A stretch of 64,000 nt of DNA from Deltaproteobacteria bacterium (GCA_033763315.1 JANRKS010000002.1:128001-192000), one strand, 5' to 3'; shown: positions 35,320 to 62,825, numbered from the stretch's first letter. Numbers and translations are program-made. Notes: generated by a model from the sequence alone, not told the origin.

Positions 35320-35345
35320 TGTAACGAAAAACGAGGCGCCGAGAC
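35320..35345 (+). promoter_or_regulatory. ECF-type motif TGTAAC-N16-AGAC with no sense gene downstream
   Basis: Exact match to island motif; faces the 3' end of 35387-36172(-). Confidence 0.5.
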
Positions 35346-35386
35346 CGACACCACTGGTGGGATTCCGTCTGCCCGGGTTCGGCCTG

Positions 35387-36172
35387 TCAGCGCGGCTTCA
35401 CGAATCGCAGCGCGAAGCGGTCGCTGGTTCCACGCCGGGTTTCGTCGAACACGTTCCAGTCGCGCGCGTCGGCCGCATTCCGCAGGAAGTCCGACTCCGA
35501 TTCGAGGTGGAAACCTGCGGCCAACAACTCGGCCTTCACCATGTCTTCCTCGATGCGATGATGGCTCTTGACGACGGCGGCGCCCGCGCCCTTTGCAGCC
35601 GCATGGTCGATGACTACGAACGAGCCGCCAGGTTTCAACGCACGCAGAACCGCCCGGTTCATGCGAGCGCGGTCGGTGCCGAACCAGTAGGTGTCGTGGT
35701 AAAAGAGAATCATCACGACCAGGTCGAGACCCTCAATCTCCTGTGGAAACGGATCCTCGAGCTCGCGGTCGAGGCGTACGACGTTGGCCATGGCGGGGCG
35801 GGCGAGGCGGGCGGTCCAGGGCTTCTCGGCGAACCGCTGCAGCACGAACGGCGTGTTGTGACCATAGACGCGGCCGGTGGGGCCGACCGCGCGGGCCAGC
35901 AGTTCAGCCGTGTATCCGCGGCCGGCAACCAGCTCGGCGACGCGCTGTCCGGGACGCAGGTCGAGGAAGGCCAGAAGTGCGGCCGGCTTTCGCTGCCCAT
36001 CCATCTCGCGGTCTTCGGGCGTGCGATCGGGCGCGTTCACGATGTCGGCCGCATCGGGAGGTCCGGGCGGTGGGGCGGCGGTTCCGGCCGCAGGCGCGTC
36101 CACGCGCTTCTGAACGGGCGCACAGCCGAGGAGAGTGATGAACGCGATGGCTGCAAGACGGGGACGGCTCAT
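35387..36172 (-). CDS. Predicted SAM-dependent methyltransferase lipoprotein
   Basis: LLGC lipobox; D..RKP..L.F..VAEL..G.GY..YHD..LKPGG..DH..HRI. Confidence 0.8.
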   Translation of the reverse strand: MSRPRLAAIAFITLLGCAPVQKRVDAPAAGTAAPPPGPPDAADIVNAPDRTPEDREMDGQRKPAALLAFLDLRPGQRVAELVAGRGYTAELLARAVGPTGRVYGHNTPFVLQRFAEKPWTARLARPAMANVVRLDRELEDPFPQEIEGLDLVVMILFYHDTYWFGTDRARMNRAVLRALKPGGSFVVIDHAAAKGAGAAVVKSHHRIEEDMVKAELLAAGFHLESESDFLRNAADARDWNVFDETRRGTSDRFALRFVKPR

Positions 36173-36234
36173 GTGCGGCCATGATAACGCGATGACCTGG
36201 CGGCCGACCACGAGCCGTGTACCCAAGCTTGGTT

Positions 36235-36762
36235 TTACTTGGACAGGTCGTGCGTGCGTAGGCCGTCGTTGATGTTGGTCTGGTGGCAGGTCGTGCACAT
36301 GGTGACGGACTTGCCCTCGAGCGGCGCTCCCTTGTCGTCGAGGAAGACCTTGCCGTCCGGAGTCACCTGACACCAATACCAGTCGGCGCCCTGCTTGTGC
36401 ATGATGGTGAGCGCCATGGGACCCGCGTCGGTCGGCGCGGCCCAGTTCTCCTTCACGATGAGCGCACCGTCAGGGAGGGGCAAAGTCTTCGATGCCATGG
36501 CCTGTCCGACGACGTCGTTGTAGTAGCTGATGACGTGCATGTTGTTGTGCGTGGGCGACGGCTTGAGCGTCGGATTCTCTGCGAAGGTGGGCCAGTCCCG
36601 GTAGCTGGTGGTGAGCGCGAGGACGCTGCGGGTTTCGGCTGACGACTCCTGCAGCGCCGGGCCCGATGGCGAATCGGTGTCTTGGCCATCGTCGTTGCCG
36701 CAGGCCGCGATGGCGATGATGGCAAAGAAGGCCACGAGGGATGAACGAGGATGGGTGGTCAT
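36235..36762 (-). CDS. Cytochrome P460-family lipoprotein
   Basis: AAC lipobox; PDGALIVKE..W.W..CTTCH; GGAGG RBS. Confidence 0.75.
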   Translation of the reverse strand: MTTHPRSSLVAFFAIIAIAACGNDDGQDTDSPSGPALQESSAETRSVLALTTSYRDWPTFAENPTLKPSPTHNNMHVISYYNDVVGQAMASKTLPLPDGALIVKENWAAPTDAGPMALTIMHKQGADWYWCQVTPDGKVFLDDKGAPLEGKSVTMCTTCHQTNINDGLRTHDLSK

Positions 36763-36793
36763 GGATGGTCCTCCGGTTAAGGTGTGGCGGGTT

Positions 36794-36819
36794 GTCTCGC
36801 CAGCACCGCAACCGTTACA
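36794..36819 (-). promoter_or_regulatory. ECF promoter TGTAAC-N16-AGAC
   Basis: Upstream of P460 gene. Confidence 0.75.
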
Positions 36820-36834
36820 CCTGACCACCTGCGC

Positions 36835-37119
36835 TCACGTCTCGACGCGGACGCCGTTCCAGAAACCGATCCAGCCCTGGATGTGGCGGGCGGCCTCCAG
36901 TGTCCGGGGATAGCTCCAGGCGGCGTTGGGGTTGACCTCGTCGCCCAAAACAACATCGAAGTAGTCGGCTGTGCCTTTCCAGCCGCACGTGGTGTGCTTG
37001 GGTGAGGGTCGCAGCAGGTCCCGGTTCACGCTTTCGGGTGGAAAATACGTATAACCATCGACGACCTGGGTGTTCAGGCTTTCGGCGATGACGCGACCGT
37101 TCCAGACGGCTTTGGCCAT
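36835..37119 (-). CDS. DUF427 family protein
   Basis: WNGRVIAES..YFP..CGWKG.A.Y..AAWSYP. Confidence 0.9.
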   Translation of the reverse strand: MAKAVWNGRVIAESLNTQVVDGYTYFPPESVNRDLLRPSPKHTTCGWKGTADYFDVVLGDEVNPNAAWSYPRTLEAARHIQGWIGFWNGVRVET

Positions 37120-37130
37120 GATGGCGTTCT

Positions 37131-37156
37131 GTATTGCAGGCGCCGGCAGCGTTACA
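37131..37156 (-). promoter_or_regulatory. ECF promoter TGTAAC-N16-ATAC
   Basis: Upstream of DUF427; back-to-back with 37164-37189. Confidence 0.75.
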
Positions 37157-37163
37157 GTGCGGT

Positions 37164-37189
37164 CGTAACGGCCAGCCAGGTCGAGGGAC
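37164..37189 (+). promoter_or_regulatory. ECF promoter CGTAAC-N16-GGAC
   Basis: Upstream of TIGR04282-like gene. Confidence 0.7.
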
Positions 37190-37218
37190 CCAAGGCACGT
37201 CTAGACCGATCTCTTGCC

Positions 37219-37875
37219 ATGATTCCCGATGTGACCGTCTGTGTGTTTGCCAAGCCACCCTGGCCAGGGAAGGCCAAGACTCGGCTCGCCCGCACCGTTG
37301 GTGCCGATGGGGCGGCGCGTTTGGCAGCCGCCTTTCTCGCGGACACGCTGCGCAGCGTGGGTGGCTTGCCGTGGGCACGGGTGATCTTGGCCCTGGCGGA
37401 GCCGTGGGCAGACGCGCCCATGCAGGGCGATCGCGTGTGGCTCCAGGGGGACGGCGATCTCGGCCAGCGCTTGGAAACGGTCACGGCGCGGGCGCTACAG
37501 CTGAGGGATCCCGTGCTCGCCATCGGGGCCGACTCGCCGGGATTGCCCGCGGATCGGTTGGTCGCGGCCCGCGCCCGCCTGCAAGACTCGGACGCGGTGC
37601 TCGGTCCGTCCGAGGACGGCGGCTTCTACCTGCTCGGGCTGCGTCGCTGCCCTCCGGGGCTGCTGAAAGACCTCCCCTGGAGCGCCAGCCACACCGGGGT
37701 GGCCACCCGAAAGAGGCTGCACGAGTCGGGATTTCGGGTCACTGAGCTCGAGCCCTGGTTCGATGTCGACGAGTGGCCCGAGTTGCAAAAGCTCGTGCGG
37801 CTGCTCGAGGCCGGTGACGTCACGGCGCCCGAGACGCGCGCCGTGCTCGAGGAGCTGGGTCTATGGCCGGCGTAG
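37219..37875 (+). CDS. TIGR04282-like (CofC-like) arsenosugar-associated transferase
   Basis: FAKPP.PG..KTRL, QG.GDLG.R, IGADSP, GPSEDGGFYLLG, DVD. Confidence 0.88.
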   Translation: MIPDVTVCVFAKPPWPGKAKTRLARTVGADGAARLAAAFLADTLRSVGGLPWARVILALAEPWADAPMQGDRVWLQGDGDLGQRLETVTARALQLRDPVLAIGADSPGLPADRLVAARARLQDSDAVLGPSEDGGFYLLGLRRCPPGLLKDLPWSASHTGVATRKRLHESGFRVTELEPWFDVDEWPELQKLVRLLEAGDVTAPETRAVLEELGLWPA

Positions 37876-38582
37876 GTGAGACGCAGCGCCCGTCCATCGG
37901 CATCGTCATCCCCACCCTCGACGAAGAGGCGCGCATCGGCGCTCGCCTGGAGCAGCTGCGCCTTGCCTGTGGATTCGACCGCATCGTCGTGAGTGATGGC
38001 GGCAGCCGCGACGACACCGTCGCCATCGCGTGCAGCCACCCTGACGTGGTCGTCGTCGAAGCGCCGAGGGGCCGGGCGCATCAGATGAACCGCGGCGCCG
38101 AGGCGCTCGCCGAGGTGGACACACTCTGCTTCGTGCATGCGGACGTGTCGTTGCCGCATGATGCGGGCACCCTGATTCGACGGGCATTGGCCGACCCCGC
38201 GGTCGTGGCAGGAGCGTTCAAGACCTGGACGGTGGCGGATTGTGAAAGTCGGCCCTGGTGGAGCCCCCTGCTGCACCTCGCGGACGTACGTTCACGATAT
38301 ACAGGGTTGCCTTATGGCGATCAGGCGCTGTTCGTGCGACGCGAGATCTTCACCGCGATCGGCGGCTTTCCCGAGCAGCCGCTCATGGAGGACCTCGAGC
38401 TGTCGCGACGCCTGCGCCGCCGAGGCCGCATCGTCCGGGTACCCGCCTGCGTGCGCGTCTCTGGCCGGCGTTTCATCGAGCGGCCCCTGTTCTTCACGGC
38501 CGTGGTGAACGTCTTCCCACTTCTCTACAAAATGGGGGTCTCGCCGACCGCCTTGCGGCGTCTCTACGACGACATCCGCTGA
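37863..38582 (+). CDS. TIGR04283-like GT2 glycosyltransferase
   Basis: IPTLDE, DGGSRD, GRA.QMN.GA, HAD, YGDQ, LMED, SGRR. Confidence 0.88.
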   Translation: MAGVGETQRPSIGIVIPTLDEEARIGARLEQLRLACGFDRIVVSDGGSRDDTVAIACSHPDVVVVEAPRGRAHQMNRGAEALAEVDTLCFVHADVSLPHDAGTLIRRALADPAVVAGAFKTWTVADCESRPWWSPLLHLADVRSRYTGLPYGDQALFVRREIFTAIGGFPEQPLMEDLELSRRLRRRGRIVRVPACVRVSGRRFIERPLFFTAVVNVFPLLYKMGVSPTALRRLYDDIR

Positions 38583-38587
38583 GCGTC

Positions 38588-39607
38588 TCAACCGAGCGCG
38601 CCGCCGCAGCTCGAGCCGGCCCCGGCGGTGCAGCCGAGGCAGTGGTCCGCCACCGCGATGCGCGCGCCCACGAAGTCACTCAGGCTGTCGATCTCGAACA
38701 GCGTCGGCGTACGTGCATCACGATCGGCGGCGGGAAGTTCCAGCATCTGGTTGAAGTCGCAATCGTACACACGACCGTCCCATCCGACGCTGACGAGGCT
38801 CCGGCACATGAGCGCCGGCACGGTGTCGGGGTTGAAGTGATTCACCAGCAGCGACATGTACGCCTCGTATTGCCCCGTGCGCTCGAGCGTGTGCGCGAAG
38901 CGGCTGATCGGCATGTTCGTGATGGTGAGCAGGCGACCAAACGAGACGTCGAAGTGTTCGGCGAGCTCGAGCTTGTAGCGCGCTTCGAGCTTGTCTTGTG
39001 CAGGTGGAAGTGACGGGCCCTGCGGGTTGTAGACCAGGTCGAGCTGAAGAGGCGAGCCATGCTCGCCGTAACCAAGCGCGTTCAGACGCCGCAGAGCCTC
39101 GATGCTCTTGTCGAAAACGCCGCGCCCGCGTTGTTTGTCGACGTTGCCGGCCGAGTAGCAAGGCAGGCTGGCGACGACGTGCACCTCGTTCGCGGCGAGG
39201 AACTCCGCGAGATCTTCCATGCTGGGCTCGAAGAGGATGGTGAGGTTGCAGCGGTCGATCACCTGCTTGCCGAGGGAACGCGCCCGGGACACCAGCGTGC
39301 GAAAGTGCGCGTTCAGCTCCGGCGCACCGCCGGTGATGTCGATCGTTTCAATCTGTGGATCGTCCATGAGCGACATGAGCCGATGGGCGGTGTGGGCCTG
39401 CAGCTCCTCGGTGCGCTTGGGGCCCGCGTCCACGTGACAGTGGTGGCAGGCTTGATTGCAGCGTTTGCCCACGTTGATTTGCAGCGTCGCGACCGAATCG
39501 CGGCGCAAAGCCGGCATGTCGTGGACCGCGAGACGTTGCTCGAAGAGCTGCGCGCCGAGTAGTGGCAGGTGGCGAGGTCGTGCCATCGCGGTGGATGGAG
39601 GGGACAT
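38588..39607 (-). CDS. arsS: Arsenosugar biosynthesis radical SAM protein ArsS
   Basis: LQINVGKRCNQACHHCH, ASLPCY, YDCDFNQ, HCLGCTAGAGSSCGG. Confidence 0.92.
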   Translation of the reverse strand: MSPPSTAMARPRHLPLLGAQLFEQRLAVHDMPALRRDSVATLQINVGKRCNQACHHCHVDAGPKRTEELQAHTAHRLMSLMDDPQIETIDITGGAPELNAHFRTLVSRARSLGKQVIDRCNLTILFEPSMEDLAEFLAANEVHVVASLPCYSAGNVDKQRGRGVFDKSIEALRRLNALGYGEHGSPLQLDLVYNPQGPSLPPAQDKLEARYKLELAEHFDVSFGRLLTITNMPISRFAHTLERTGQYEAYMSLLVNHFNPDTVPALMCRSLVSVGWDGRVYDCDFNQMLELPAADRDARTPTLFEIDSLSDFVGARIAVADHCLGCTAGAGSSCGGALG

Positions 39608-39629
39608 CAGAAAGTTGGCTCCGTTTGTT

Positions 39630-40316
39630 TCACGTCGAAGGACGAGTTTGCGGCTGCCGCCAGAGCGCGACGCCCCAGGTGGCGAAGATGAACGCGGTCA
39701 CCACCCCGACATGGAACAACAACATGTGCGTCAGGTCGTTGGCGGGGCAGCGCGACTGCGCGAACGCCTGACCGGCGAGGGCCCCAACACCTCCCACCGT
39801 CGCCAGGACAGCCGGCTCCAGTCGCACACGCAGACCCCTGCTGGCGATGGCGATCGCGACGAGCGGCATCAAGCCGCCCATGAGCTCGGCCATGGCGCAC
39901 ATCGCCCCCGCCGAGAGCGGGAGACCCACGTGGACGTGGTTCTGCGGAAGGAAGGCGAGCAGACCCGAGGCCGTCACCAGCACGAGGGCGGCCAGCAGAC
40001 CCCATCGCCGCTGCGACAGCGCGTTGGCGGTCGTCAGGAATCGGGCCAGCGCCGCCGCCCGCTTCGGTGATGCCTGCATGGCCTCCGCCTGAGCCTGGAA
40101 GGCGCGCAGGAGCTCCGCGGGTGGCGAGGTGGTCGCGGGCAAGCGCCCGGCCCGCGCCACGAACTGCGTGGTGGCCCGCAACTCGTGACGATAGGCGCGG
40201 CAGCGGGCGCACCCGAGCCGATGCAGCCACCAGCGCGCGTAGCGCGGGGCCGTCAAAGCACCGTCGATCTCGTCGCTGGCTTCACGCGCGAACTTGGGAC
40301 AAACATTGGGGGACAT
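39630..40316 (-). CDS. Anti-sigma factor: zf-HC2 (ZAS) N-terminus + NrsF-like membrane domain
   Basis: HRLGCARC (HxxxCxxC); TM helices with Cys and CP..H..FH. Confidence 0.7.
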   Translation of the reverse strand: MSPNVCPKFAREASDEIDGALTAPRYARWWLHRLGCARCRAYRHELRATTQFVARAGRLPATTSPPAELLRAFQAQAEAMQASPKRAAALARFLTTANALSQRRWGLLAALVLVTASGLLAFLPQNHVHVGLPLSAGAMCAMAELMGGLMPLVAIAIASRGLRVRLEPAVLATVGGVGALAGQAFAQSRCPANDLTHMLLFHVGVVTAFIFATWGVALWRQPQTRPST

Positions 40317-40353
40317 CGTTGTGGCTCCGGACCTCACGGGCTCACGGGGTACA

Positions 40354-40379
40354 GTCGTCGGGGCGACGAAAACGTTACA
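40354..40379 (-). promoter_or_regulatory. ECF promoter TGTAAC-N16-CGAC
   Basis: Upstream of anti-sigma and arsS. Confidence 0.75.
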
Positions 40380-40427
40380 ACGGATTCTTGTCCCCCGCCG
40401 GGCTCCCTCGCTTTCTCGAGGTTGTCC

Positions 40428-40453
40428 GGTAACCTCCGGACAGCCGTGGCATC
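40428..40453 (+). promoter_or_regulatory. Weaker ECF promoter GGTAAC-N16-CATC
   Basis: Upstream of sigma gene; -10 deviates from consensus. Confidence 0.45.
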
Positions 40454-40510
40454 CACCACGTTGGTGTCTGCAACCATTCGAGCGCCCACGTGCGGGAGGC
40501 AAAACTTGGT

Positions 40511-41233
40511 ATGGTGTCGGCGGTGATTTCGCAGTCGAAGCGGGGCCAGGCGCGGCCCGTCGAGCCGGGCCGGTCTGACGCGCCGGCCGCTGCTACAGCC
40601 GCTGCTGAGGACGAGGACGAGGCCGAGCGTCTCGTCGCCAGCTTGCGACGCGCCGACAGCGCCGCCTTCACCGCGCTCTACCAGCGCTATCACCGTTCCA
40701 TGCTGCGGGTGGCCGCTGCTTACGTGTCCAGCCACGCGGTCGTCGAGGAGGTCGTGCAGGAGACCTGGCTCGCGGTGCTGGAAGGCATCGCGCGATTCGA
40801 GCAGCGTTCCAGCTTTCGCACCTGGCTGTTCGCCATCCTCGTCAATCGGGCCAAGACACGCGGCCAGCGTGAAAAGCGCAGCGTGCCGTTCTCGGTGCTG
40901 GCGGGGGACCCCGACGACGCGGCGCAGCCCGGCAGCGAAACGGTGGTCGCGCAGGCGCTGCCCTGGCCGGGGGCCGGGGAATCCCCCGAGGCGTCGCCCG
41001 AGACGGAGCTCGGGCGCAAGCGGATGGTCGAGGTACTGGAACAGGCGCTGTCTCGTCTGCCAGAGAACTACCAGGTGGTCGTCACCATGCGCGACATCGA
41101 GGGCATCGACGCCGCCGAGGTGTGCCGGCTGCTCGACATCAGCGCCGAGAACCAACGGGTTTTGCTGCATCGCGCACGTCATCGGTTGCGGGACCTTTTG
41201 TCAGAGATCGTCCCGGCGCTCGAAGGGCGCTGA
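40511..41233 (+). CDS. ECF sigma factor
   Basis: EEVVQETWL..FEQRSSFRTWL..LP..RD.EG..EVC..L.IS..RVLLHRAR. Confidence 0.92.
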   Translation: MVSAVISQSKRGQARPVEPGRSDAPAAATAAAEDEDEAERLVASLRRADSAAFTALYQRYHRSMLRVAAAYVSSHAVVEEVVQETWLAVLEGIARFEQRSSFRTWLFAILVNRAKTRGQREKRSVPFSVLAGDPDDAAQPGSETVVAQALPWPGAGESPEASPETELGRKRMVEVLEQALSRLPENYQVVVTMRDIEGIDAAEVCRLLDISAENQRVLLHRARHRLRDLLSEIVPALEGR

Positions 41234-41247
41234 GGCGGCGACGGCCG

Positions 41248-41273
41248 CGTAACGGTGGCGCTCGTTGCGAGAC
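41248..41273 (+). promoter_or_regulatory. ECF promoter CGTAAC-N16-AGAC
   Basis: Immediately upstream of pstS-like gene. Confidence 0.75.
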
Positions 41274-41282
41274 TGGACGGAC

Positions 41283-42116
41283 GTGAACGTCTGTCGGTGG
41301 TTGAAACGACAACCTTGGCCGCTTCTGCTCCTCGTCGCTCTGGCCGTGGTGGAAGGATGTCGCCGGCCCCAGGAGGGGGAGACCCTGGTCGTGACCGGAT
41401 CGAGCACGTTGGCGCCGCTCATCCTGCAAATCGGACGGCGCTACGAGGAGCGGCACCCCGGCGTGCGCATCGACGTGCAGACTGGTGGATCCGCGCGTGG
41501 CATCACCGACGCGCGCACGGGCGTGGCCAGCGCCGGTATGGTCTCGCGGCGGCTCGGGGCGGGGGAGGCGGACCTCACGGCGCACCTCGTGGCCAGGGAC
41601 GGCATCGGGCTCATCGTTCACGGCGAGAATCCCGTAACCTCGCTCACGCGCGAGCAGGTTGTCGGCATCTTCACCGGTCGCCTCACGAATTGGCAGGCGG
41701 TCGGCGGCCGTGCAGCCCCGATTACAGTCGTCAACAAGGCCGAAGGGCGGTCGACGCTCGAGTTGTTCGTGCATCACTTCGGCCTCGAGAACGCGGCGAT
41801 CAAGGCCGACGTGGTCATCGGTGACAATGAACAAGGGGTGAAGACGGTCGCGGGCAATCCCGCCGCCATCGGGTACGTGTCCATCGGGACTGCGGAGACG
41901 GACATCGCGGGCGGCGTGCCCATTCGCCTGCTGCCGATGGACGGTGTCGTGGCGAACACGGCGCAGGTGGCCGCGGGGAAATATCCCCTTTCGCGCGAGC
42001 TGAATCTGGTCACCCGTGGTGCGCCGACCGGGGCGCTGGCCGCGTTCATCGCCTATGCGCAAGGGCGCGAGGTCGTGGATCTGGTTGGGGAGCATGCGTT
42101 CGTCCCGGTGCGCTGA
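41283..42116 (+). CDS. pstS: Phosphate-type ABC transporter substrate-binding lipoprotein
   Basis: TGSSTLAP, GGSARG, SR, DGI, AIGYVS, YPLSR; GTG 41283 preferred because TTG 41265 lies inside the promoter. Confidence 0.85.
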   Translation: MNVCRWLKRQPWPLLLLVALAVVEGCRRPQEGETLVVTGSSTLAPLILQIGRRYEERHPGVRIDVQTGGSARGITDARTGVASAGMVSRRLGAGEADLTAHLVARDGIGLIVHGENPVTSLTREQVVGIFTGRLTNWQAVGGRAAPITVVNKAEGRSTLELFVHHFGLENAAIKADVVIGDNEQGVKTVAGNPAAIGYVSIGTAETDIAGGVPIRLLPMDGVVANTAQVAAGKYPLSRELNLVTRGAPTGALAAFIAYAQGREVVDLVGEHAFVPVR

Positions 42117-49120: not shown

Positions 49121-49133
49121 GGTCGTGCCCCGC

Positions 49134-50654: not shown

Positions 50655-51360
50655 GTCGTTCGCTGTTCTCGAGCTCGCGGGCGAGGGCCCGGCGCGCGGT
50701 GCGGGTGATGAGCACGGTCACGAGCACGGTTGCGCCGAGCCCGACCCAGTAGAAGGCGCTGGTTGCGCCGGCAGCGCCGCTTCCGGCGCCCCGCGCCTGC
50801 AGTAGCTGACTCGCGTTGGTGACCAGCGAGCCGAGATAGACGTAGAGGAAAGTGCCGGGAAGCATGCCGACCAGAGAGCCGGCGATATAGGCGGGCAGCG
50901 ACACCCGGGTGAGGCCCAGGCTGTAGTTCAGCAAGTTGAATGGCAGAATCGGGGACAGGCGCAACAAGAAGACGATCTTGAAGCCGCCCTCACCGATGGC
51001 CTTGTCGAGCGCCGCGAAGCGAGGTCGACCGGCGAGCTTCTTCGCCACCCAGCCTCGCGCGACGAAGCGCCCGACCAAGAACGCGAGCGTGGCCCCGACG
51101 ACGCTGGCAGGCGACACCACCAGCGTGCCGAGCAGTGGTCCGTAGAGAAACCCGGACCCGAGCGTGAGCACGGACCCGGGGAGCATGAACACCGTCGCCA
51201 GTACGTAAGCGACTCCGAAGACGACCGCGCCGAGCGCCCCGAGGCCCCGCACCCACTCGACGAAGGCGAGCAGCCAGGCGGTCACGGGCAGGGTCACCAG
51301 CGCGACGATGGCGGCTACGGCCACCAGCGCGGCCACGATTGCTTTGTACTTGCCCGTCAC
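50626..51360 (-). CDS. TVP38/TMEM64 (DedA/VTT) membrane protein
   Basis: LPGS.LT..G.L.G..RLSP..PFN..NY..G. Confidence 0.9.
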   Translation of the reverse strand: MTGKYKAIVAALVAVAAIVALVTLPVTAWLLAFVEWVRGLGALGAVVFGVAYVLATVFMLPGSVLTLGSGFLYGPLLGTLVVSPASVVGATLAFLVGRFVARGWVAKKLAGRPRFAALDKAIGEGGFKIVFLLRLSPILPFNLLNYSLGLTRVSLPAYIAGSLVGMLPGTFLYVYLGSLVTNASQLLQARGAGSGAAGATSAFYWVGLGATVLVTVLITRTARRALARELENSERHATRTATRT

Positions 51361-51378
51361 GATGCCCTCAACGCCGTG

Positions 51379-52575
51379 TTAGCAGCAGCCGTCGCCGGGA
51401 CCGCAGGTCGCGGCGGCCGCTTCGGTCGTGGCGTCGTAGTCCTGGCCCTTGGTTTCGCGAGGGTGTCGGGTCAGCATGCCGCCCGTGCAAGGGAAGGGGG
51501 GCGCCTCTTCGAGCGGGATGAGGTCCCGCGGGGGCACGAGGTCGAAGTGTTCGCGATAGGGCGCGCGGCTGTAGATGCCGTAGGTCTTCTCGCAGACGGC
51601 GACGCGCGCGCCCCGGCGAAGCACGTGCCCGTCATCGTCCTGCACTTCACGGAACGGCCCCCGGTAGATGACGGCGTGCTTTTGGTCCAGGCACGGACCG
51701 TCCTTGCCCTTGTAGGCCGCGATCGTGACGCTGCGGAACTCGATGCCCTCGACGGTCCGCCAGGGCGCCTCGGCCCGAGAGAGCACCGTGATGCCGTGAA
51801 ATCCCGCCCTCTCGAATTCGGACAACAGCTCGTCCTCGCGGAAGGCGCCGGAGATGCACCCGCTCCAGAGGTCGGGGTCTTGGCGCAGGCGTTCGGGGAC
51901 GTCCTCGTCGCACACGATGTCCGAGATGACCGCGCGTCCCCCCCGGCGCAGCACCCGGTAGATTTCGCTGAAGAGGCGACTCTTGTCCGACGGACGGACC
52001 AGGTTGAGCACGCAGTTCGAGATGACGACATCAACGCTGTCCGCGGGCACGAGCGGCTCCTGCGATCGCAGTCGGTCCATCTCGGCCTCGAACCGTGCGA
52101 GGTCGTCAACGCCGCGCACGGGCTTTCCGGCCAGGTAGGCGTCGACTGCGTCGACGTCGAGGGCGAGGTCCTGAATTTTTCCTTTGCGGAAGCTCACGTT
52201 GCCGTACCCGAGGGCGCCCGCGACGACGGGAGCGCTCTTGCGCGCTAACGTCAACATCTCGTCGTTCATGTCGACCCCAATCACTTGACCACGCGGCCCT
52301 ACCACTTGCGCGGCCATGAAACACGCCTTACCCGTGCCGGAGCCGAGATCCAGCACGACCTCTCCTTGCCGGATGTGTTCCACGGGATTTCCGCAGCCGT
52401 AATCGCGTTCGATGACCTCCTGCGGGATGACCTCGAGGAGCTTGGGATCATAGGTGGACGTCGTGGGGCAACAAAGAGCGTCCTCGCGCGTCGCGGCTGC
52501 GCGGCTGTAGCGGTCGAAAACGGCTGCTTCCTCGGTGGGGGCGTTCGGGCGGGAGCTTCCGGAGATGTGGTCCAT
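51379..52575 (-). CDS. arsM: Arsenite methyltransferase (ArsM)-like protein
   Basis: ALCCP, YGCG, LDLGSG.G, SNCVLNL, WSGCISGA, C-terminal CC. Confidence 0.8.
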   Translation of the reverse strand: MDHISGSSRPNAPTEEAAVFDRYSRAAATREDALCCPTTSTYDPKLLEVIPQEVIERDYGCGNPVEHIRQGEVVLDLGSGTGKACFMAAQVVGPRGQVIGVDMNDEMLTLARKSAPVVAGALGYGNVSFRKGKIQDLALDVDAVDAYLAGKPVRGVDDLARFEAEMDRLRSQEPLVPADSVDVVISNCVLNLVRPSDKSRLFSEIYRVLRRGGRAVISDIVCDEDVPERLRQDPDLWSGCISGAFREDELLSEFERAGFHGITVLSRAEAPWRTVEGIEFRSVTIAAYKGKDGPCLDQKHAVIYRGPFREVQDDDGHVLRRGARVAVCEKTYGIYSRAPYREHFDLVPPRDLIPLEEAPPFPCTGGMLTRHPRETKGQDYDATTEAAAATCGPGDGCC

Positions 52576-52596
52576 TGGCGTGTCCTGTGACGCTAC

Positions 52597-52622
52597 GTCT
52601 CGGGCCGCGGAGAAACGTTACA
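52597..52622 (-). promoter_or_regulatory. ECF promoter TGTAAC-N16-AGAC
   Basis: Upstream of arsM operon. Confidence 0.8.
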
Positions 52623-52645
52623 AACGCTGTTCGCGATCTCGCCCG

Positions 52646-52671
52646 TGTAACGTTCGCGCGGCTGGCGGAAC
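52646..52671 (+). promoter_or_regulatory. ECF promoter TGTAAC-N16-GAAC
   Basis: Divergent partner, upstream of 52695. Confidence 0.65.
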
Positions 52672-52694
52672 AGACTTGACAAGGACGTGAGATC

Positions 52695-52922
52695 TTGACC
52701 ACCCGCTCCGATTCAAAGCCGCCCCGCTATCACGGCATCCAGGTCTTCTCGGCGACACGCGCGCGCGAGCGTGACCTGCTCGATCTGCGCATCAACGAAT
52801 GGATTCGTGTCAACCCGACCCGCACCGTGGTGGCGTGCAAGGTGCTGCAATCGTCCGACCAGAAGTACCACTGCCTTTCGGCGGTGCTGTTCTGGGCGGA
52901 ACCTGATGCCCCAGCACGGTGA
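52695..52922 (+). CDS. Small hypothetical protein
   Basis: AAGGA RBS; VFSATRARER..QSSD..HCLS pattern recalled from myxobacterial small proteins. Confidence 0.6.
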   Translation: MTTRSDSKPPRYHGIQVFSATRARERDLLDLRINEWIRVNPTRTVVACKVLQSSDQKYHCLSAVLFWAEPDAPAR

Positions 52923-54570
52923 CGGGCGAATCTGGCCGAGAGGACCTCCGTTCATGAGCAAAGCGGATACATCGGCTCGAGGGGGGCGCCCGGACCGGCT
53001 ATTGCTGGCGCGGGTCGCGGATGGCAGCGTCGCAGGTCGGCTTTGTTCGATCGTCGCCGAGGAGGCCGGCATCGACGGCCTCCCCGAGGAACTCCACGTC
53101 GAGACGCTGCAACGATTGAAGGCGCTGGTTGCGGTGCTGGGGATCCTTCACGTGGTGCCGCTCGCGGTCGAGAGCTACCACTGGTGGGGCGGCCGCTCCG
53201 CAGACCTCGCGACCGTCGCGGCCGTGTTGGGACACGGCGCAGGACTCGTGATGGCGGCCAGTTTCCTGATGCTGTTGCTTGCTTGCCGCATGGGGCTCGG
53301 GCGGGCGCTGGACCTGGCGTTGGCGTTCCAGGTCGTGACGAGCTTTGCGTTCGCCAGCACCGAGCGCGCGCACCGGCCGGGCGCCATTTCCGTCGTCGCC
53401 ATCGTCATCCTGGTCTTCGCTCTATTCGTGCCGCGCAACCCGCGCAAAACCATGGTAGCAGCGTTCTCTTCGGCGCTGACCGTGCCGCCCGCCCACCTGC
53501 TGGTCGAGTCGACGGAGCAGGGGGCCACGGGATGGCTGTTCCCTCTGGCCGTCAATCTCGCGGTGGCTGCCATCGCGATCGTCCCCGCGACCGTCGTTTC
53601 GAGCCTGGCGAAGGCGCTCGACTCCGCCCGCCGCATGGGCAGCTACGAGCTGGTCGAGAAGATCGGTGCGGGCGGTATGGGGGAAGTGTGGAGGGCGCAC
53701 CATCGCATGCTGCGGAGACCAGCGGCCGTCAAAATCGTCAAGCCGGCGGCGGCACGGGACGCCGTGGCGCTGACACGCGCCCGTTTGCGCTTCGAGCGTG
53801 AGGCCCAGGTGATAGCCGAGCTCGAGTCGGAGCACACGGTCCGTATCTTCGACTTTGGCGCCACCTCGGATGGGGGGCTGTTCTACGTGATGGAGCTGCT
53901 GTCGGGACTGGACCTCGAGTCGCTGGTTCGGACCCACGGTCCCATGCCACCTGAGAGGGTGGTGTATCTGATGGCGCAGGCGTGTGATTCCCTGGCCGAC
54001 GCACACCTACACGGGGTCATTCACCGGGATGTAAAGCCCGCGAACATTTTTGTCGCGCGAACGAGCACCATGGCGGACTTCATCAAGGTGCTCGATTTCG
54101 GCGTCGCGGCCTCGGTGACCGAAGGGCAGGCGGGGGTGACCCTGACGGCCGAAAATGCCGTGGTGGGAAGTCCAGCCTTTCTAGCCCCGGAGATGGTGCT
54201 CGGGGCGGAGCGCCCTGATCCCCGCTCGGATGTGTACGCCATTGGCTGTGTGATGTATTTCCTGCTGGCCGGCAATACCGTGTTTCAGGCGGCTTCAGCC
54301 ATGGAGATGGCGATCGCCCACGTGAACAAGGAGCCGGGGCGGGCCTCGGCGCTCGCACCCGGTCCGGTGCCGGTCTGGCTGGACGATCTCATCGCGGAGT
54401 GCTTGCGCAAGCATCCCGCGGCGCGCCCGCGCGACATGCAGGAGCTTCGTCAGCGTCTGCTCCAAGAACACCTCCCGAACCCGTGGACCGAGGAGCGAGC
54501 GCGGGGCTGGTGGGTAGCGCACGGCAAGCGAGCCGGCGCCAAGCAATCCCCGCGAAGGGTGGCGGTGTAA
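52906..54570 (+). CDS. Membrane-anchored Ser/Thr protein kinase
   Basis: About six TM helices, then IGAGGMGEV, AVK, HRDVKPAN, DFG, APE; start uncertain. Confidence 0.9.
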   Translation: MPQHGDGRIWPRGPPFMSKADTSARGGRPDRLLLARVADGSVAGRLCSIVAEEAGIDGLPEELHVETLQRLKALVAVLGILHVVPLAVESYHWWGGRSADLATVAAVLGHGAGLVMAASFLMLLLACRMGLGRALDLALAFQVVTSFAFASTERAHRPGAISVVAIVILVFALFVPRNPRKTMVAAFSSALTVPPAHLLVESTEQGATGWLFPLAVNLAVAAIAIVPATVVSSLAKALDSARRMGSYELVEKIGAGGMGEVWRAHHRMLRRPAAVKIVKPAAARDAVALTRARLRFEREAQVIAELESEHTVRIFDFGATSDGGLFYVMELLSGLDLESLVRTHGPMPPERVVYLMAQACDSLADAHLHGVIHRDVKPANIFVARTSTMADFIKVLDFGVAASVTEGQAGVTLTAENAVVGSPAFLAPEMVLGAERPDPRSDVYAIGCVMYFLLAGNTVFQAASAMEMAIAHVNKEPGRASALAPGPVPVWLDDLIAECLRKHPAARPRDMQELRQRLLQEHLPNPWTEERARGWWVAHGKRAGAKQSPRRVAV

Positions 54571-54591
54571 CAAATCTGCGGGGCAACGTAC
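54566..54591 (+). promoter_or_regulatory. ECF promoter TGTAAC-N16-GTAC
   Basis: Upstream of CKGKDG peptide gene. Confidence 0.75.
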
Positions 54592-54645
54592 TTCATGTTC
54601 AAGGGCATCGATTGCCAATGACTCGACAAGACAGGAGATGACGTG

Positions 54646-54852
54646 ATGACCAAGAAGGGTACTTTGATCGCGACGCTGGCGGCGGGCCTGTTGGCTTCGG
54701 GGGCGCCTCTCGTGGCGCAGTCAGCTCAGGCAGACGAAGGCCGTTCGGAGATGGGGAAGGACAAGGACGGTTGCAAGGGCAAGGATGGTTGCAAGGGCAA
54801 GGACGGTTGCAAGGGCAAGGACGGCTGCAAGGGCAAGGACGGCAAGAAGTGA
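54646..54852 (+). CDS. Secreted Cys/Lys/Gly repeat peptide (RiPP-precursor-like)
   Basis: AGGAG RBS; signal peptide ending AQA; (KDGCKG)x4. Confidence 0.75.
   Translation: MTKKGTLIATLAAGLLASGAPLVAQSAQADEGRSEMGKDKDGCKGKDGCKGKDGCKGKDGCKGKDGKK
54763..54843 (+). repeat. 18-bp coding tandem repeat AAGGA(C/T)GG(T/C)TGCAAGGGC x4.5
   Basis: Read directly; differences among the four full units are synonymous. Confidence 0.9.
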
Positions 54853-54945
54853 ACTGAGGCCCTGGGCCGGTCCCGTGAAACCACGGTGACCGGCACCGGT
54901 CTCGCGGCGGCTGGCGCCTCGACTCACGTGCAAAGGACCGATGAT

Positions 54946-55482
54946 ATGAAAACTGCGTTGGTGGCGACGCTCGAGCGCGCTCATGCCTTGGCTGCCCGTT
55001 TCAGTTGGGTCGGCGCCTTGCTCGTGCGCATCAGCATCGGGCTCATGTTCTTCCAAACGGGTAAAGGCAAGCTGGGGAACATCGAGGGCACCACGGGTTT
55101 CTTCGAATCGCTGGGCATCCCAGCCCCGGGCTTCCACGCCGTGTTCGTCGGCGGCCTAGAGATGCTGGGCGGTCTTGCTTTGGTGCTGGGGCTAGGCACG
55201 CGCTACTTCGCCGTACCGCTGGCGATCACGATGGTTGTCGCCATGGCCACCGGGGGCGCGTTCAGTGAGACTCCTGAGGGACTCATGGACGTCGTCACTG
55301 CCTCGGAGTTCACCTACATGGTGATCTTGTTCTGGCTGGCAGCCACGGGCGCGGGGCGCGCGTCCCTCGACGGCCTCGTCGCGCGTGTGTTGCATGGCAC
55401 AAGCCGATCGGAGGCCGACTCGGGCGAAGGTGACCGGATTTCTCAAGGGGAGCAGGCGGGGGCCGCCATTGGCAGGCCGTAG
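54946..55482 (+). CDS. DoxX family membrane protein
   Basis: LLVRI..F..G..KL..F.SLGIP..E..GG..L.LG..TR..GAG..SLD. Confidence 0.9.
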   Translation: MKTALVATLERAHALAARFSWVGALLVRISIGLMFFQTGKGKLGNIEGTTGFFESLGIPAPGFHAVFVGGLEMLGGLALVLGLGTRYFAVPLAITMVVAMATGGAFSETPEGLMDVVTASEFTYMVILFWLAATGAGRASLDGLVARVLHGTSRSEADSGEGDRISQGEQAGAAIGRP

Positions 55483-55943
55483 AAGGCTCCAAGCGCGGCT
55501 CCGAACGCTGCGTGCGCGATGAACACCGATACCGCCGTTCGACTGCCGTAGTTGCGCGCCAGGAAACCGGGCGGCTCGAGCTGGCGTAGCTGTGTAGGTC
55601 CTTGTTGCTCGCTCGCCATCCGCGGGTGGAGTCCGGGCAAGATCCGCATCCCCGCCGTGAGCACGAATGACGCGTGCACGATGCCTACAGCCGTGCCGGC
55701 CCACCAGGTCGCGCGGTCCCAGGCATGAAATGCCGCCACGTAGAGCAGAGAGAAGACGAAACCATTCCCGAGGTGAACCATGAAGCCGACCAGCTTGGCG
55801 CGGTCGCGATCGGGCGTGAACATGACACCGAGCATGTACGGGAGGTTCATGCGGGTGAGGTGCAGTCCCTGGCTGCCCGCCATGATGGTCGTGAGGATGA
55901 CCGTGGCTACGAATCCCCACAACAGCCAGCTGATGATGTTCAC
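55443..55943 (-). CDS. Four-TM membrane protein with conserved His
   Basis: GFVAT..MT..H..NG..H..FG; resembles 57802-58356. Confidence 0.7.
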   Translation of the reverse strand: MNIISWLLWGFVATVILTTIMAGSQGLHLTRMNLPYMLGVMFTPDRDRAKLVGFMVHLGNGFVFSLLYVAAFHAWDRATWWAGTAVGIVHASFVLTAGMRILPGLHPRMASEQQGPTQLRQLEPPGFLARNYGSRTAVSVFIAHAAFGAALGAFYGLPMAAPACSP

Positions 55944-57790
55944 GAGACCGTCCTCGCAGCGCTCGCGCGGGCCTCGTGCGAGTGCTCCTGAGCCAGTCGC
56001 CGCTGCAGGCTGATGGCGGCATTCATCAGGCCCACATGGGTGAACGCCTGGGGGAAGTTGCCAAGCGGCTCGCCCGTGCCGACATCGATCTCCTCTGCAT
56101 AGAGGCCGAGATCGTTGCCGAAGCGAAGTAGAGCCTCGAAGGCGGCTCGCGCCTGCGCTGCCGAGCCACCGCCAAGCGCGAGATACTCGGCGCCCCAGAA
56201 GCTGCAGATTCCGAAGGCGCCTTCCCCAGCGGAATCCGACGAGCGATAGCGATGGAGCAGCCCGTCGCGGGCGCCAAGCCGCAGGCGGATCCTGTTGTAG
56301 GTGCTGCGCATGCGCTCCGCGCGGGCGTCTTCGAAGCCGTACCAGGGGAGCAAGAGCAGGCTGGCATCAACATCGGCAGCCCCGTACGTGGCGACGTAAC
56401 TTGCGAGTCTCGGACAATAGCCGTTCTCGTGGACATCGCGCGCGATCCGGTCGCGGTGTTTTCGGAAATCGTCGAGCGGGGCCCGACGCAGTTGACCCAG
56501 CGCCGCGAGTTCGATCAAGCGGTCGAGCGCCGTCCAACACAGGACACGCGAATGGGTCCTGTGATGCCGCCCGGACCGCGGTTCCCAGATGCCTTCGTCA
56601 GCCAGCATCCAGTGGCGGCAAACGTACTTGCCGAGGTCGCAGAGAAATCGCTGTACGTCGTGATCGATTCGGCCACCACGGCGCACGGATTGCGCGACGG
56701 CATCGATGACTTCGCCATACACGTCCAGCTGGAGCTGGTCGGACGCGGCGTTGCCAACGCGGACTGGCTTGGAGTCGCGATGGCCCGCCAGGTGCGTCAG
56801 CTCCAACTCTTGGGTTGGTTGCCGCCCGTGAACATCATAGAGCACTTGCAACCTGGGCCGCGTCAGCCGTGTCGCGTGTAGCAGCCAGCTGACGAAGGAC
56901 TCGGCCTCCTCGTGAAAGCCCACCCCGAACAGCGCACGAACCGTCAACGCAGCGTCGCGCAGCCAGCAGTACCGGTAATCCCAGTTGAGGTCGCCGCCGA
57001 GTCGCTCGGGTAGTGACGTCGTTGGCGCTGCCACGATTGCTCCGGAGGGGGCGTACACCATCAGCCTCAATGCCAGGGCGCTGCGCACGACCGCCTCGCG
57101 CCTAGGCCCGTCGTAGGTGATTCGGGAGGCCCAGTCGGACCAGATCCGTTCGGTTCGTCGAATGGACTCGAAGGTCGCCTGTCCGAGAGGCGGAAGGACG
57201 GCTGGCCAGTCATCACAAAAGGTGAGGGAGACCAGGGCCGAATCGCCGGCGCGGAGCCGCGCCCGTCCGCGAACCGTGCCAGGATCATCTATCTCCAGCG
57301 ACCCTCTCGGCAGGTCGGTCCGCAGGACCAAAAGACCCTGGCGCGTCTCGATGCGAACGCCGAGCGGGCCCCAGCGCCGAACCCGCGGGAGTTCCCGGCC
57401 ATAATTGGGTCGGGTGGCCAATTCGATCACCACCTCCACTTCGCCCTTCGTGCAGGTCGCGACGCGGAGGATTTCGTGATCGGGCAACAGCGAGCGGCGG
57501 CGCTCGGCATCGGTGGTCGCGGTCATCGCGTCCATCACGCACAGCGCGCCGCTCGAGCCGGTCCACGATGTCTCGAGCACGTTGCTTGCTTCCACGTAGC
57601 GGCGGCGCGGGCCATGGAGTCCGCGCGGCTGAAGTCGGAAATGACCTGCCTGCGGGTCGAGCAAGGCCCCGAACAACGAAGGGCTGTCGAACCGCGGCCA
57701 GCAGAGCCAGTCGATCGAGCCCTCCTTCGATACCAGGGCCGCCGAGCGGCAGTCTCCGATGACACCATAGTTGCCAATTGATCCCGCCAT
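55940..57790 (-). CDS. Glycoside hydrolase family 15 (trehalase/glucoamylase-like)
   Basis: IGDC..AALV, AAPTTSLPE..NWDYRYCWLRD, QLDVYG, GIWE, GNFPQAFTH. Confidence 0.92.
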   Translation of the reverse strand: MAGSIGNYGVIGDCRSAALVSKEGSIDWLCWPRFDSPSLFGALLDPQAGHFRLQPRGLHGPRRRYVEASNVLETSWTGSSGALCVMDAMTATTDAERRRSLLPDHEILRVATCTKGEVEVVIELATRPNYGRELPRVRRWGPLGVRIETRQGLLVLRTDLPRGSLEIDDPGTVRGRARLRAGDSALVSLTFCDDWPAVLPPLGQATFESIRRTERIWSDWASRITYDGPRREAVVRSALALRLMVYAPSGAIVAAPTTSLPERLGGDLNWDYRYCWLRDAALTVRALFGVGFHEEAESFVSWLLHATRLTRPRLQVLYDVHGRQPTQELELTHLAGHRDSKPVRVGNAASDQLQLDVYGEVIDAVAQSVRRGGRIDHDVQRFLCDLGKYVCRHWMLADEGIWEPRSGRHHRTHSRVLCWTALDRLIELAALGQLRRAPLDDFRKHRDRIARDVHENGYCPRLASYVATYGAADVDASLLLLPWYGFEDARAERMRSTYNRIRLRLGARDGLLHRYRSSDSAGEGAFGICSFWGAEYLALGGGSAAQARAAFEALLRFGNDLGLYAEEIDVGTGEPLGNFPQAFTHVGLMNAAISLQRRLAQEHSHEARASAARTVS

Positions 57791-57801
57791 CCGGCTACGC
57801 C

Positions 57802-58356
57802 TCAGGCTGGGGTAGGCGCGGGGGGACTCAACGGCCGGTGCACGCGCGTTTCTGCGCGGTTCCTGGTGCCAGCGTCGGTTGCGTCCCTCTCCTCCACCGA
57901 CTCGATCTCGATGATCCTGAGCGTCGCGGTTAACGCAAGCGCGTATGCGATGTGGACGATGAAGCTGGCCAGCGCCATCATCACGGTGTTTGGTGCGTTG
58001 ACGAAGAACACGCCCGCTGGCGACGCAAGGGGGACCACGACCAGACCGGCTACCAGGGTGGTGAGAAGCGCATAGGCGAGCCCTTGGACGAGCCAGCCAC
58101 GCGGGAGGTGATCACGCACCAGGAAAACGAAGATGTACGCGAGCAGTACCCCGTTGGCGAAATGAGCCAGATTCCCAGCCCAGAACCCGTAAGGCGTTCC
58201 CTCGTGGGCGCGGTTCATGCTGGCAGTCAGCATCGCGCCGACATCGATGGCTGGCAGTCCCACCCCAGCTTGCCAGAAACCGATCATGGTCATCACGAAC
58301 GTCGCTATCAACCCCGCGAACGCCACCCGAATGTAGACGCTCCCCGACTTGGTCAT
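57802..58356 (-). CDS. Four-TM membrane protein with conserved His
   Basis: AGLIAT.VMT..HFANG..HIAY; GGGAG RBS. Confidence 0.7.
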   Translation of the reverse strand: MTKSGSVYIRVAFAGLIATFVMTMIGFWQAGVGLPAIDVGAMLTASMNRAHEGTPYGFWAGNLAHFANGVLLAYIFVFLVRDHLPRGWLVQGLAYALLTTLVAGLVVVPLASPAGVFFVNAPNTVMMALASFIVHIAYALALTATLRIIEIESVEERDATDAGTRNRAETRVHRPLSPPAPTPA

Positions 58357-58393
58357 CGCTCCCTCCCTTCGCTCGAACTGTTCCTATGGGGAC

Positions 58394-58419
58394 GTCCCGC
58401 CGGAGTCGCGGTCGTTACT
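58394..58419 (-). promoter_or_regulatory. ECF promoter AGTAAC-N16-GGAC
   Basis: Upstream of 58356 operon. Confidence 0.65.
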
Positions 58420-58486
58420 GGCCGGCTCACGATGTCGCGCGGGGGCAGGTCGCAGCTGGACTCCCCGCAGTTTTTCTTTGACCCGG

Positions 58487-58512
58487 TGTAACATCTGGAT
58501 AGCCAGATATAC
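58487..58512 (+). promoter_or_regulatory. ECF promoter TGTAAC-N16-ATAC
   Basis: Upstream of 58522 operon. Confidence 0.75.
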
Positions 58513-62824: not shown

Positions 62825-62825
62825 C

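Follow-up and report, generated by a model that had tools for sequence, protein, structure and literature searches.

A stretch of 64,000 nucleotides (nt) from a Deltaproteobacteria bacterium (GCA_033763315.1, JANRKS010000002.1:128001-192000), called the window in the following, carries the gene of a sigma factor of the extracytoplasmic function (ECF) type at 40511..41233 (+) and, around it, a recurrent motif made up of GTAAC, a 16-nt spacer and a tetramer. It is rather probable that this motif is the -35/-10 promoter of the 40511 sigma, through which about 17 operons of a genomic island would be switched on together when an anti-sigma factor is inactivated, most likely by thiol-oxidising stress. 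Coordinates without a prefix are window positions; the window corresponds to C2:128001-192000 of its genome (G000), and G401 and G402 are genomes of the same genus. Genes were called with an own hexamer-based caller, and some start codons were picked by hand.

The motif and the genomic island

All 13 elements listed in an original prediction, made by eye from the window's sequence, were found in the interval 35320-58512 with the 16-nt spacer and the tetramers given, its coordinates lying one base before the G of GTAAC. Twelve of them belong to a single class with the consensus YGTAACR-N15-NDAC (core GTAAC-N18-AC), whereas the thirteenth, in front of the sigma gene itself, fits a host-wide class discussed below. 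In 5,503 dinucleotide shuffles of the interval, the core came up 0.53 times on average and never more than 5 times, as compared to 12 occurrences in the real sequence; in its intergenic DNA there were 10 versus 0.13 expected and at most 2 in 5,000 shuffles; the proposed check against a shuffled background thus supported the motif. Alternative spacers (12-15 and 17-21) gave 0-3 matches each in the interval. Elsewhere in the window, one match was found in 1-22000, where the reading by eye had noticed none, one in 22001-35300 and none in 58521-64000.

Confinement to the island was also observed on the genome level. The densest stretch of 23.2 kb outside the island contained no more than six matches in a genome scan. 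After an upstream GTAAC, AC at N16 was found in 16/19 cases in the island core versus 26/417 in the rest of the genome, where GTAAC not lying upstream of genes was followed by AC at N16 in 223/4,201 cases, i.e. without upstream preference. The strict motif had 26 matches in the genome, 12 of them in the island core. Four other genomes with the sigma showed no more than small local clusters of 2-5 strict sites. Equal frequency throughout the genome, which had been named as a reason to abandon the prediction, was not seen, as there was no enrichment outside the island.

With the chosen starts, the end of the -10 element lies 9-66 nt before a start codon for 12 sites, which agrees with the claim that twelve of them stand close upstream of a first gene, and a site is present before each of the 11 transcription units read in 36.2-58.6 kb, as expected from the statement that almost every unit has one. 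Fixed spacing, orientation towards start codons and excess over chance, the features by which an ECF promoter class is recognised in sequence, were therefore found together, and YGTAACR-N15-NDAC likely represents one ECF-type promoter class marking nearly every unit of the interval.

Eight sites form four back-to-back pairs in the interval, as had been described, with -35 starts 10, 51, 26 and 70 nt apart, and six such pairs, forming inverted repeats, were counted on the island. When the -35 elements lie 10-37 nt apart, simultaneous firing of both promoters is probably impossible. The inverted repeats would also suit a reading of the GTTAC...GTAAC pairs as palindromic operators of a dimeric transcription factor and not as promoters. 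However, this is extremely improbable, since the spacing within pairs ranges from 10 to 70 nt, many sites stand single, and each half has its own AC element at a fixed distance facing a start codon, with a spacer low in information.

The promoters are carried by a region that differs from the host chromosome. Near 21.5 kb the guanine-plus-cytosine content steps up from about 0.59-0.60 to about 0.66 (left part of the island, 21500..64000, with an approximate left border) and stays high up to an integrase ending at tRNA-Gly (C2:248.3 kb), about 56 kb past the window end. A compositional step, an integrase at the 3' end of a tRNA gene and insertion sequences (IS21 elements) inside are as expected for a tRNA-integrated island; as an attachment repeat, no exact repeat of at least 12 nt was found in C2:100000-248200. 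The main-class set comprises 18 sites over 61 kb, with six N16 sites beyond the window, and the regulon is thus not confined to 23 kb as first proposed. Of 20 matches between C2 163 and 224.5 kb, 17 fall in intergenic DNA or no further than 20 nt from the end of a gene, a fraction that makes up 10% of the bases, and another is 14 nt ahead of a start codon. The remaining two (C2:195659 and 197098) are located inside genes and were dropped as probable chance. The six additional sites precede an MMPL transporter gene, a DUF547 gene, genes for a TlpA-like lipoprotein and a DUF6029 protein, genes for a small lipoprotein and a rhodanese, a candidate selenoprotein gene and an SRPBCC-rhodanese operon. 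In G401, a smaller version of the cluster lies beside tRNA-Gly with flanking genes identical in kind, and sites are kept before the P460, anti-sigma and sigma genes with different spacers.

The sigma factor, its probable anti-sigma and predicted feedback

The recurrence of the motif with relatives of the 40511 sigma was observed in two locus sets. The flanks of 73 homologue loci (875 kb) contained 82 motif sites at N16 versus 16-30 at other spacers, and an independent set of 75 distinct metagenome loci had 52 at N16, 32 at N17 and 8-23 at other spacers. Among 74 homologue loci, a same-strand site within 400 nt upstream was found for arsM (4/5), doxX (4/4), P460 (6/8) and DUF547 (1/2). The gene arsS had an upstream site in five of seven loci from other sigma-bearing genomes versus one of 21 from genomes without a sigma match, a comparison in which kin are not independent. 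A matrix derived from 66 sites of other genera gave island sites 14 of the top 15 ranks in 7.6 Mb. Scanning a genome collection with the single sigma as query yielded five loci only, and the closest named homologue is annotated as Myxococcales. On the ground of this recurrence, the motif is very probably read by the 40511 sigma, and the original assignment of the sites to this sigma is retained as the likely one, apart from the site before the sigma gene itself.

As the genome encodes 79 ECF-like proteins and several ECF groups use GTAAC as -35, the sites might alternatively be read by another sigma, either an island ECF factor (at 23612, 25733 or 29615) or one of the host. This is very unlikely because no host regulon exists outside the island, the remaining island ECF operons are without a site, and the motif tracks the 40511 family across genomes and also inside its genes. 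Both this and the operator reading were rejected on the variable pair spacing, the single sites and the tie of the motif to the 40511 family. The three further ECF genes of the window lie in 23274-30493; two are of the YCII/DUF6596 type, one has a C-terminal extension and none is accompanied by the motif.

In relatives, the codons for region 4 of the sigma itself spell the full motif, some 100 nt ahead of the stop, in 28/75 GTDB-derived and 30/75 metagenome loci, and a small zinc anti-sigma was detected directly behind it in 25 of these 28 and 23 of these 30, respectively. The in-gene -35 requires a T-ending Cys or Arg codon before Asn, and a codon bias in this sense was observed: the T-ending codon was present in 70/73 rows with Asn following versus 18/66 without, and was kept across 16 families of the first locus set. 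As background, TGT before Asn is rare both in the window's genome (51/715) and in the loci (3/40). Ten loci of the first set and four metagenome loci without a region-4 anchor, as well as the loci of two unpublished genomes, were left out of the codon counts, and one mis-anchored (L112) and one short locus (L122) out of the trees. In one sigma clade (100/99 support) the in-gene -10 is shifted to GCAC, and GCAC also occurs among nearby free sites in 6/9 cases in this clade versus 2/66 in other loci, which amounts to one event. Relatives with a downstream anti-sigma thus likely receive feedback from a promoter embedded in the region-4 codons of the sigma gene.

The low use of TGT before Asn is a genome-wide property (51/715 versus 6,772/23,027 before other codons). 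A third layout of the predicted feedback was seen in four metagenome loci without an in-gene site (L266, L274, L311 and L269), in which a site lies at the very end of the sigma gene and a zinc anti-sigma starts 35-59 nt after the sigma stop. In the window sigma, the corresponding in-gene position (41124-41148) reads GCCGG/CCGA and the motif is absent. The same is true for three same-genus relatives, and in all four the anti-sigma gene lies upstream on the opposite strand with a free-standing site.

Several observations weigh against a common promoter read by this family. An independent-pairs test of the codon trait found 2 and 5 supported pairs (p 1) and had no power, so that kinship is not excluded statistically as its cause. 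The four sigmas with a divergent anti-sigma form one clade, and the rearrangement therefore counts only once. The matrix is independent evidence solely in its flanking positions (Y, R, W, T, G), since the same core filter had served to select its training sites. The gene arsS is present in 14/50 genomes with the sigma and 66/349 without, meaning that most arsS genomes lack it, and arsenic genes are seldom adjacent in the metagenome loci (arsS 2/80, DUF2064 1/80, with many loci being short). Finally, the main-class site 35321..35345 (+, AGAC) has no plus-strand gene behind it, the next called one being 1.9 kb off. It is antisense to a run of methyltransferase and egtD/B genes, overlaps a minus-strand terminator-like hairpin (35335-35352) and takes rank 13 genome-wide with the trained matrix.

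The sigma gene is preceded on the opposite strand by a gene (39630..40316, -) that likely encodes an anti-sigma in which a zinc anti-sigma (ZAS) domain is fused to an NrsF-like hydrophobic membrane domain. The N-terminal zinc ligands are C6, H32, C36 and C39, in a motif resembling that of the small anti-sigmas encoded directly downstream (+1) of sigma genes, and H32, C36, C39, C140, C190, H197 and H202 are invariant in 34/34 relatives. The zf-HC2 profile matched 23/34 and the NrsF profile 2/34 of these relatives, and the 39630 protein itself matched neither. Its Atlas leads were NrsF and zf-HC2 clusters, and a single-sequence homologue search returned only the protein itself. The predicted complex of the sigma with anti-sigma residues 1-95 scored 0.86 versus 0.24 for the best control, with at least 89% contact agreement between runs and a predicted local distance difference test value of at least 84 for the partner; the score mark was reached by 116/157 solved pairs and 2/215 mismatched pairs. 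Since ECF-ZAS complexes have already been solved, the prediction indicates likeness and not binding. The site 40354..40378 (-, CGAC) lies 37 nt before the anti-sigma-arsS operon, and its orthologues in G401 and both copies in G402 also have an upstream motif site, from which negative feedback is predicted.

The thirteenth site, 40429..40453 (+, CATC), is located 57 nt before the sigma gene and kept in G401. With a G in front of GTAAC, a C following it and CATC as the tetramer, it departs from the main consensus three times, and it obtains no score from the trained matrix. It fits a second class, GNAACC-N14-GCATC, of which 12/30 genome matches lie 28-150 nt upstream of genes versus 0-2 at other spacers (binomial 9e-9 versus a 5% background, for a pattern chosen after the fact). 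Four of these 12 are at C31:180583, C11:149141, C7:434938 and C17:94432, and the targets, labelled by sequence motifs, are presumably glutaredoxins, a glutathione transferase, a DsbA-like protein and a ribonucleotide reductase. In G401, three of 11 such matches stand before the sigma and before orthologues of a glutaredoxin and of rhodanese-MoeB, and in G402 about three of 19 precede counterparts of targets in the window's genome. A full upstream match to this class was seen for just one of the 79 ECF-like host proteins, the island sigma. A main-class site faces the sigma in only 4/69 homologue loci, and a site on the opposite strand is present in 19. With the missing matrix score, the fit to the GCATC class and the few sigma-facing main-class sites, it appears reasonably likely that 40429 is an input from the host rather than a weak self-promoter; the earlier description as a weak copy of the same class was not upheld, and self-activation of the 40511 sigma is doubtful.

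A weak self-promoter without any host input would account for the conserved GTAAC and 16-nt spacer, for the position back to back with 40378 and for a second GTAAC-N16-CATC which at C2:205749 forms a back-to-back pair with a main-class site. It has to be regarded as improbable, as three positions of the main consensus are missed, no matrix score is obtained, the host class fits with its 12/30 matches upstream of genes, and a main-class site directed towards the sigma is present in so few homologue loci. However, some results speak for the self-promoter and against host input. No GCATC-class site was found upstream of the SigH-like gene (C34) in 30 orthologue loci or of the PRK11922-like gene (C19) in 11, and both were dropped as the host sigma of this class. 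In five genomes of other genera, the 15 matches look like chance, and a family-wide GCATC regulon was likewise rejected. A possible lead to the host sigma is an orphan small zinc anti-sigma-like gene at C17:70219-70482 with a near GCATC-class match 108 nt upstream.

Gene content and the inducing signal

On the left side of the interval, a site at 36794..36818 (-, AGAC) lies 31 nt before the gene of a cytochrome P460-like lipoprotein (36235-36762), is kept in G401 and probably also heads a methyltransferase gene (35387-36172) and an egtD-egtB fusion (32929-35277). The latter encodes a single-chain EgtD-EgtB fusion that scores above the cut-off of the EgtB model and below that of SenA. The next pair consists of 37131..37155 (-, ATAC), 11 nt before a DUF427 gene (36835-37119), and 37165..37189 (+, GGAC), 29 nt before the TIGR04282/DUF2064 (37219-37875) and TIGR04283 glycosyltransferase (37863-38582) genes. 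The radical SAM protein ArsS is encoded at 38588..39517 (-), downstream of the anti-sigma gene. With 449.7 bits (TIGR04167, cut-off 300) for ArsS, 151.5/134 for TIGR04282 and 190.8/182 for TIGR04283, these members of the arsenosugar set are all above their cut-offs. The ArsM-like protein remains under them (arsenosugar-type ArsM 140.8/400, best ArsM model 338.4/500).

Behind the sigma gene, 41249..41273 (+, AGAC) is followed after 9 nt by an ABC transporter operon of the pstSCAB-like kind (41283-44599), whose four genes all score under their NCBIfam cut-offs. The site 47047..47071 (-, AGAC) lies within the 3' end of a called open reading frame (47007-48410), 14 nt before genes for a 95-aa protein, a DUF3179 lipoprotein and a MetA-type outer-membrane protein (44572-47032). 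At 52597..52621 (-, AGAC), a site is found 21 nt before the ArsM-like methyltransferase gene (51379-52575), which is followed by genes for a VTT protein, a MerA/RclA-like flavoprotein reductase, a GT2 and a GT87-like protein. Its counterpart 52647..52671 (+, GAAC) is 23 nt before a 75-aa gene and a Ser/Thr kinase gene (52695-54570). The kinase stop codon overlaps 54567..54591 (+, GTAC), which lies 54 nt before the gene of a BufA2-like Cys-repeat peptide (54646-54852) followed by doxX (54886-55482). The last pair is formed by 58394..58418 (-, GGAC), 37 nt before genes for a membrane protein, a GH15 trehalase-like protein and a second membrane protein (55443-58356), and 58488..58512 (+, ATAC) before a lipoprotein/ExbBD/TonB module with its start at 58522 or 58579, which runs past the window end. 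This lipoprotein/ExbBD/TonB/receptor module (58579-64000 and beyond) is a gene-by-gene paralogue of C11:75770-85615 in the host (27-50% identity), and no main-class site was found upstream of the host module.

Further genes were noticed beyond the window. C2:216752-222774 encodes a SelD fused to an oxidoreductase domain, the only tRNA-Sec of the genome, SelB and SelA; in neither of the two same-genus genomes was a selA found. Within selA, but on the other strand, a site with a 17-nt spacer occurs 136 nt ahead of selB. It is doubtful, as three other genomes gave no support for it at their selA loci, although the metagenome set shows an enrichment of N17. Directly behind a main-class site, C2:210974-212986 encodes a lipoprotein with an in-frame UGA in an F-U-P-I-C motif. 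Read through the UGA, its AhpC/TSA domain is completed; the downstream hairpin reaches a z of -1.72 only, the selenocysteine machinery is present, and in a crude genome scan this was the only clear selenoprotein candidate. At C2:224156-225269, merR is followed by the gene of a MerC protein with a DF-family N-terminal domain, and the merC stop codon falls within the -35 of the top-ranked site of the matrix. Near the right end of the island, a JAB-ThiF fusion adjoins a multi-ubiquitin/E2 protein (C2:240805-242951); the pair resembles a prokaryotic ubiquitin-like system, possibly with an anti-phage role.

From this arrangement, a mechanism can be proposed. The GCATC-class site at 40429 would allow a host stress sigma to prime the island sigma, which the 39630 protein would hold through its zinc domain. 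Oxidation of, or thiol-reactive attack on, the zinc ligands or C140/C190 would then release it. The free sigma would transcribe the genes for reductases, ergothioneine synthesis, ArsM/ArsS/glycosyltransferases, transporters and the selenoprotein, and also, from 40378, its own anti-sigma, leading to self-shutdown.

A thiol-oxidant stress as inducing signal is considered just on the probable side, by analogy with related systems, for three reasons. The analogues respond to H2O2 (EcfF, PMC3420878), to Cr/Cd (Caulobacter SigF, PMC3511200) and to reactive chlorine (Azospira SigF, PMC4436054; FroR, bioRxiv 10.1101/2022.02.01.478687). The cargo comprises a flavoprotein disulfide reductase, TlpA-like proteins, EgtD/B and a selenoprotein. 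Furthermore, the host ars operons and a host bufferin-like locus are without sites.

Arsenic as the signal is rather unlikely, and a dedicated programme for arsenic methylation, arsenosugars and phosphate uptake answering to arsenite is slightly more so. Arsenite binds cysteines. ArsS, TIGR04282 and TIGR04283 exceed their cut-offs, the ArsM-like gene and the pst-like transporter are members, and arsM has the upstream site in most (4/5) homologue loci. However, both host arsC-arsR-acr3 operons are without a site, ArsM stays under both ArsM cut-offs, most members (reductases, P460, DoxX, egtD/B, selenoprotein) are not arsenic genes, and the studied analogues answer to H2O2, HOCl or Cr/Cd. The two host operons are a similar pair (C31:210920-212764 and C11:199214-201055).

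Copper or mercury is quite unlikely as the signal, and a Cu/Hg buffering programme of the bufferin-SigF type decidedly so. The BufA2-like peptide and DoxX behind 54567, the MerA-like reductase, merR-merC on the island and a site before doxX in all four homologue loci are in line with it. Against this, the peptide is far under the BufA2 cut-off (26.3 versus 60), the island has no MNIO maturase, a complete host locus on C8 has no site, and sigma/NrsF genes are reported with Buf1 and not Buf2 clusters (PMC12452194). This motif-free host locus (peptide-MNIO-partner, C8:155049-157168) might mature the bufferin-like peptide of the island.

Taking these elements together, the island might be a plug-in stress programme that imports an ECF sigma, its 18 private promoters and a full selenocysteine apparatus for one redox selenoprotein. 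The link to the host would be the single promoter before the sigma gene, read by a genus-level thiol-stress sigma; arsM, arsS, DUF2064 and TIGR04283 would be members of an oxidant defence, and the feedback promoter would sit in the codons of the sigma's DNA-reading helix. As a whole, this picture is tentative and somewhat doubtful. If it were true, the 'arsenosugar' genes would be part of an oxidant-defence regulon and not an arsenic-induced detoxification.

Comparison with known systems

The original prediction had pointed to the SigF/NrsF promoters of Caulobacter. This system is an analogue only, having another -10 element, a differently built anti-sigma and a different gene order. The comparison extends to the ECF16 systems SigF-NrsF of Caulobacter (PMC3511200), EcfF-OsrA of Bradyrhizobium (PMC3420878), the Azospira pair (PMC4436054) and RpoE7 of Sinorhizobium (PMC6180224), and further includes PMC13492112 and PMC8801600. 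In common with ECF16 are the -35 GTAAC(g/a) with a spacer of about 16 nt, two anti-sigma cysteines 50 residues apart (131/181 and 129/179 in NrsF/OsrA, 140/190 here), and divergent targets with DoxX and redox genes. As in the Azospira perchlorate island, the sigma/anti-sigma pair lies on a horizontally transferred island (PMC4436054). In contrast, the -10 here is NDAC (12/13 sites) instead of CGAA/YCG(T/A), a zinc domain forms the N-terminus of the anti-sigma, which is encoded divergently upstream and not as DUF1109/NrsF at +1, and the sigma appears to be without a promoter of its own class. About 17 operons also exceed the one adjacent operon of Azospira and the seven units of Bradyrhizobium.

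Another related group is ECF293. FroR of Pseudomonas is presumably PA3285. The group includes sigmaE-MseR of Neisseria (PMC2893595, PMC3240639) and FroR-FroI (bioRxiv 10.1101/2022.02.01.478687) and is described in PMC7826278. Most relatives of the window sigma resemble it in having a small soluble zinc anti-sigma at +1 (55/75 and 52/75 loci), and the oxidative-stress context with DoxX is also shared. The linker between regions 2 and 4 may be long as well: in the window sigma, Pfam region 2 lies at 56-123 and region 4 at 176-226, while the group text gives no linker threshold. The -35 of Neisseria sigmaE starts with GTMAG. Unlike ECF293, the window sigma has no small soluble anti-sigma at +1, its anti-sigma carries an added membrane domain, and region 4 has one cysteine as compared to three in most subgroups. 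With TIGR02943, which serves as a proxy for the group's hidden Markov model, it scores 107.9 bits, below the cut-off of 162.2. The group text describes promoter motifs as not conserved (PMC7826278), whereas this subfamily has a clear consensus. The sigma is not a member of SigF/ECF16 and is ECF293-like without qualifying for either group; the promoter logos and tables of PMC7826278 may bear on this assignment.

The rseA promoter of E. coli that depends on sigmaE only is positioned inside rpoE. Such promoters are known for the anti-sigma of Corynebacterium glutamicum (PrshA inside sigH, PMC3489674) and, downstream and sigmaE-only, for rseA (PMC12633294). In these as in the relatives studied here, a sigma-dependent promoter in or behind the sigma gene drives the anti-sigma alone as negative feedback. 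The difference is that -35 and -10 are spelled here by helix-turn-helix codons of region 4 (Cys/Arg-Asn; Glu/Asp/Gly/Ser-Thr) with rare codons across 16 families, and that the window lineage has no in-gene copy but a free-standing site before the relocated anti-sigma.

With regard to the cargo, three of the four genes of the arsenosugar set predicted by NCBIfam score above cut-offs, and their company of DUF547, VTT and a MerA-like reductase agrees with that set. They are distributed here over four operons, and the ECF motif stands before every one of these. The modules had been called otherwise unrelated, which no longer applies, as several recur behind the same motif in other Myxococcota. In the open-access literature, no description was found of this consensus, of the sigma subfamily or of ECF control of arsM/arsS. 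A regulatory handle on the predicted arsenosugar genes, for which no earlier one was found there, is thus provided. In addition, a widespread and so far unstudied subfamily of ECF factors, the nearest group of which is described without a conserved motif, obtains a promoter consensus that can be tested. As the promoter class is nearly absent from the rest of the genome, it could be useful as an orthogonal switch.

The architecture of an island-borne ECF factor with an in-gene anti-sigma promoter has precedents. New here are the consensus, the hybrid anti-sigma, the family-wide in-gene feedback promoter and a possible host input on an island-borne ECF regulon. A single island holds the whole regulon together with the selenocysteine machinery, and a host stress sigma may be placed above it; it is by size, cargo and wiring that this regulon stands apart.

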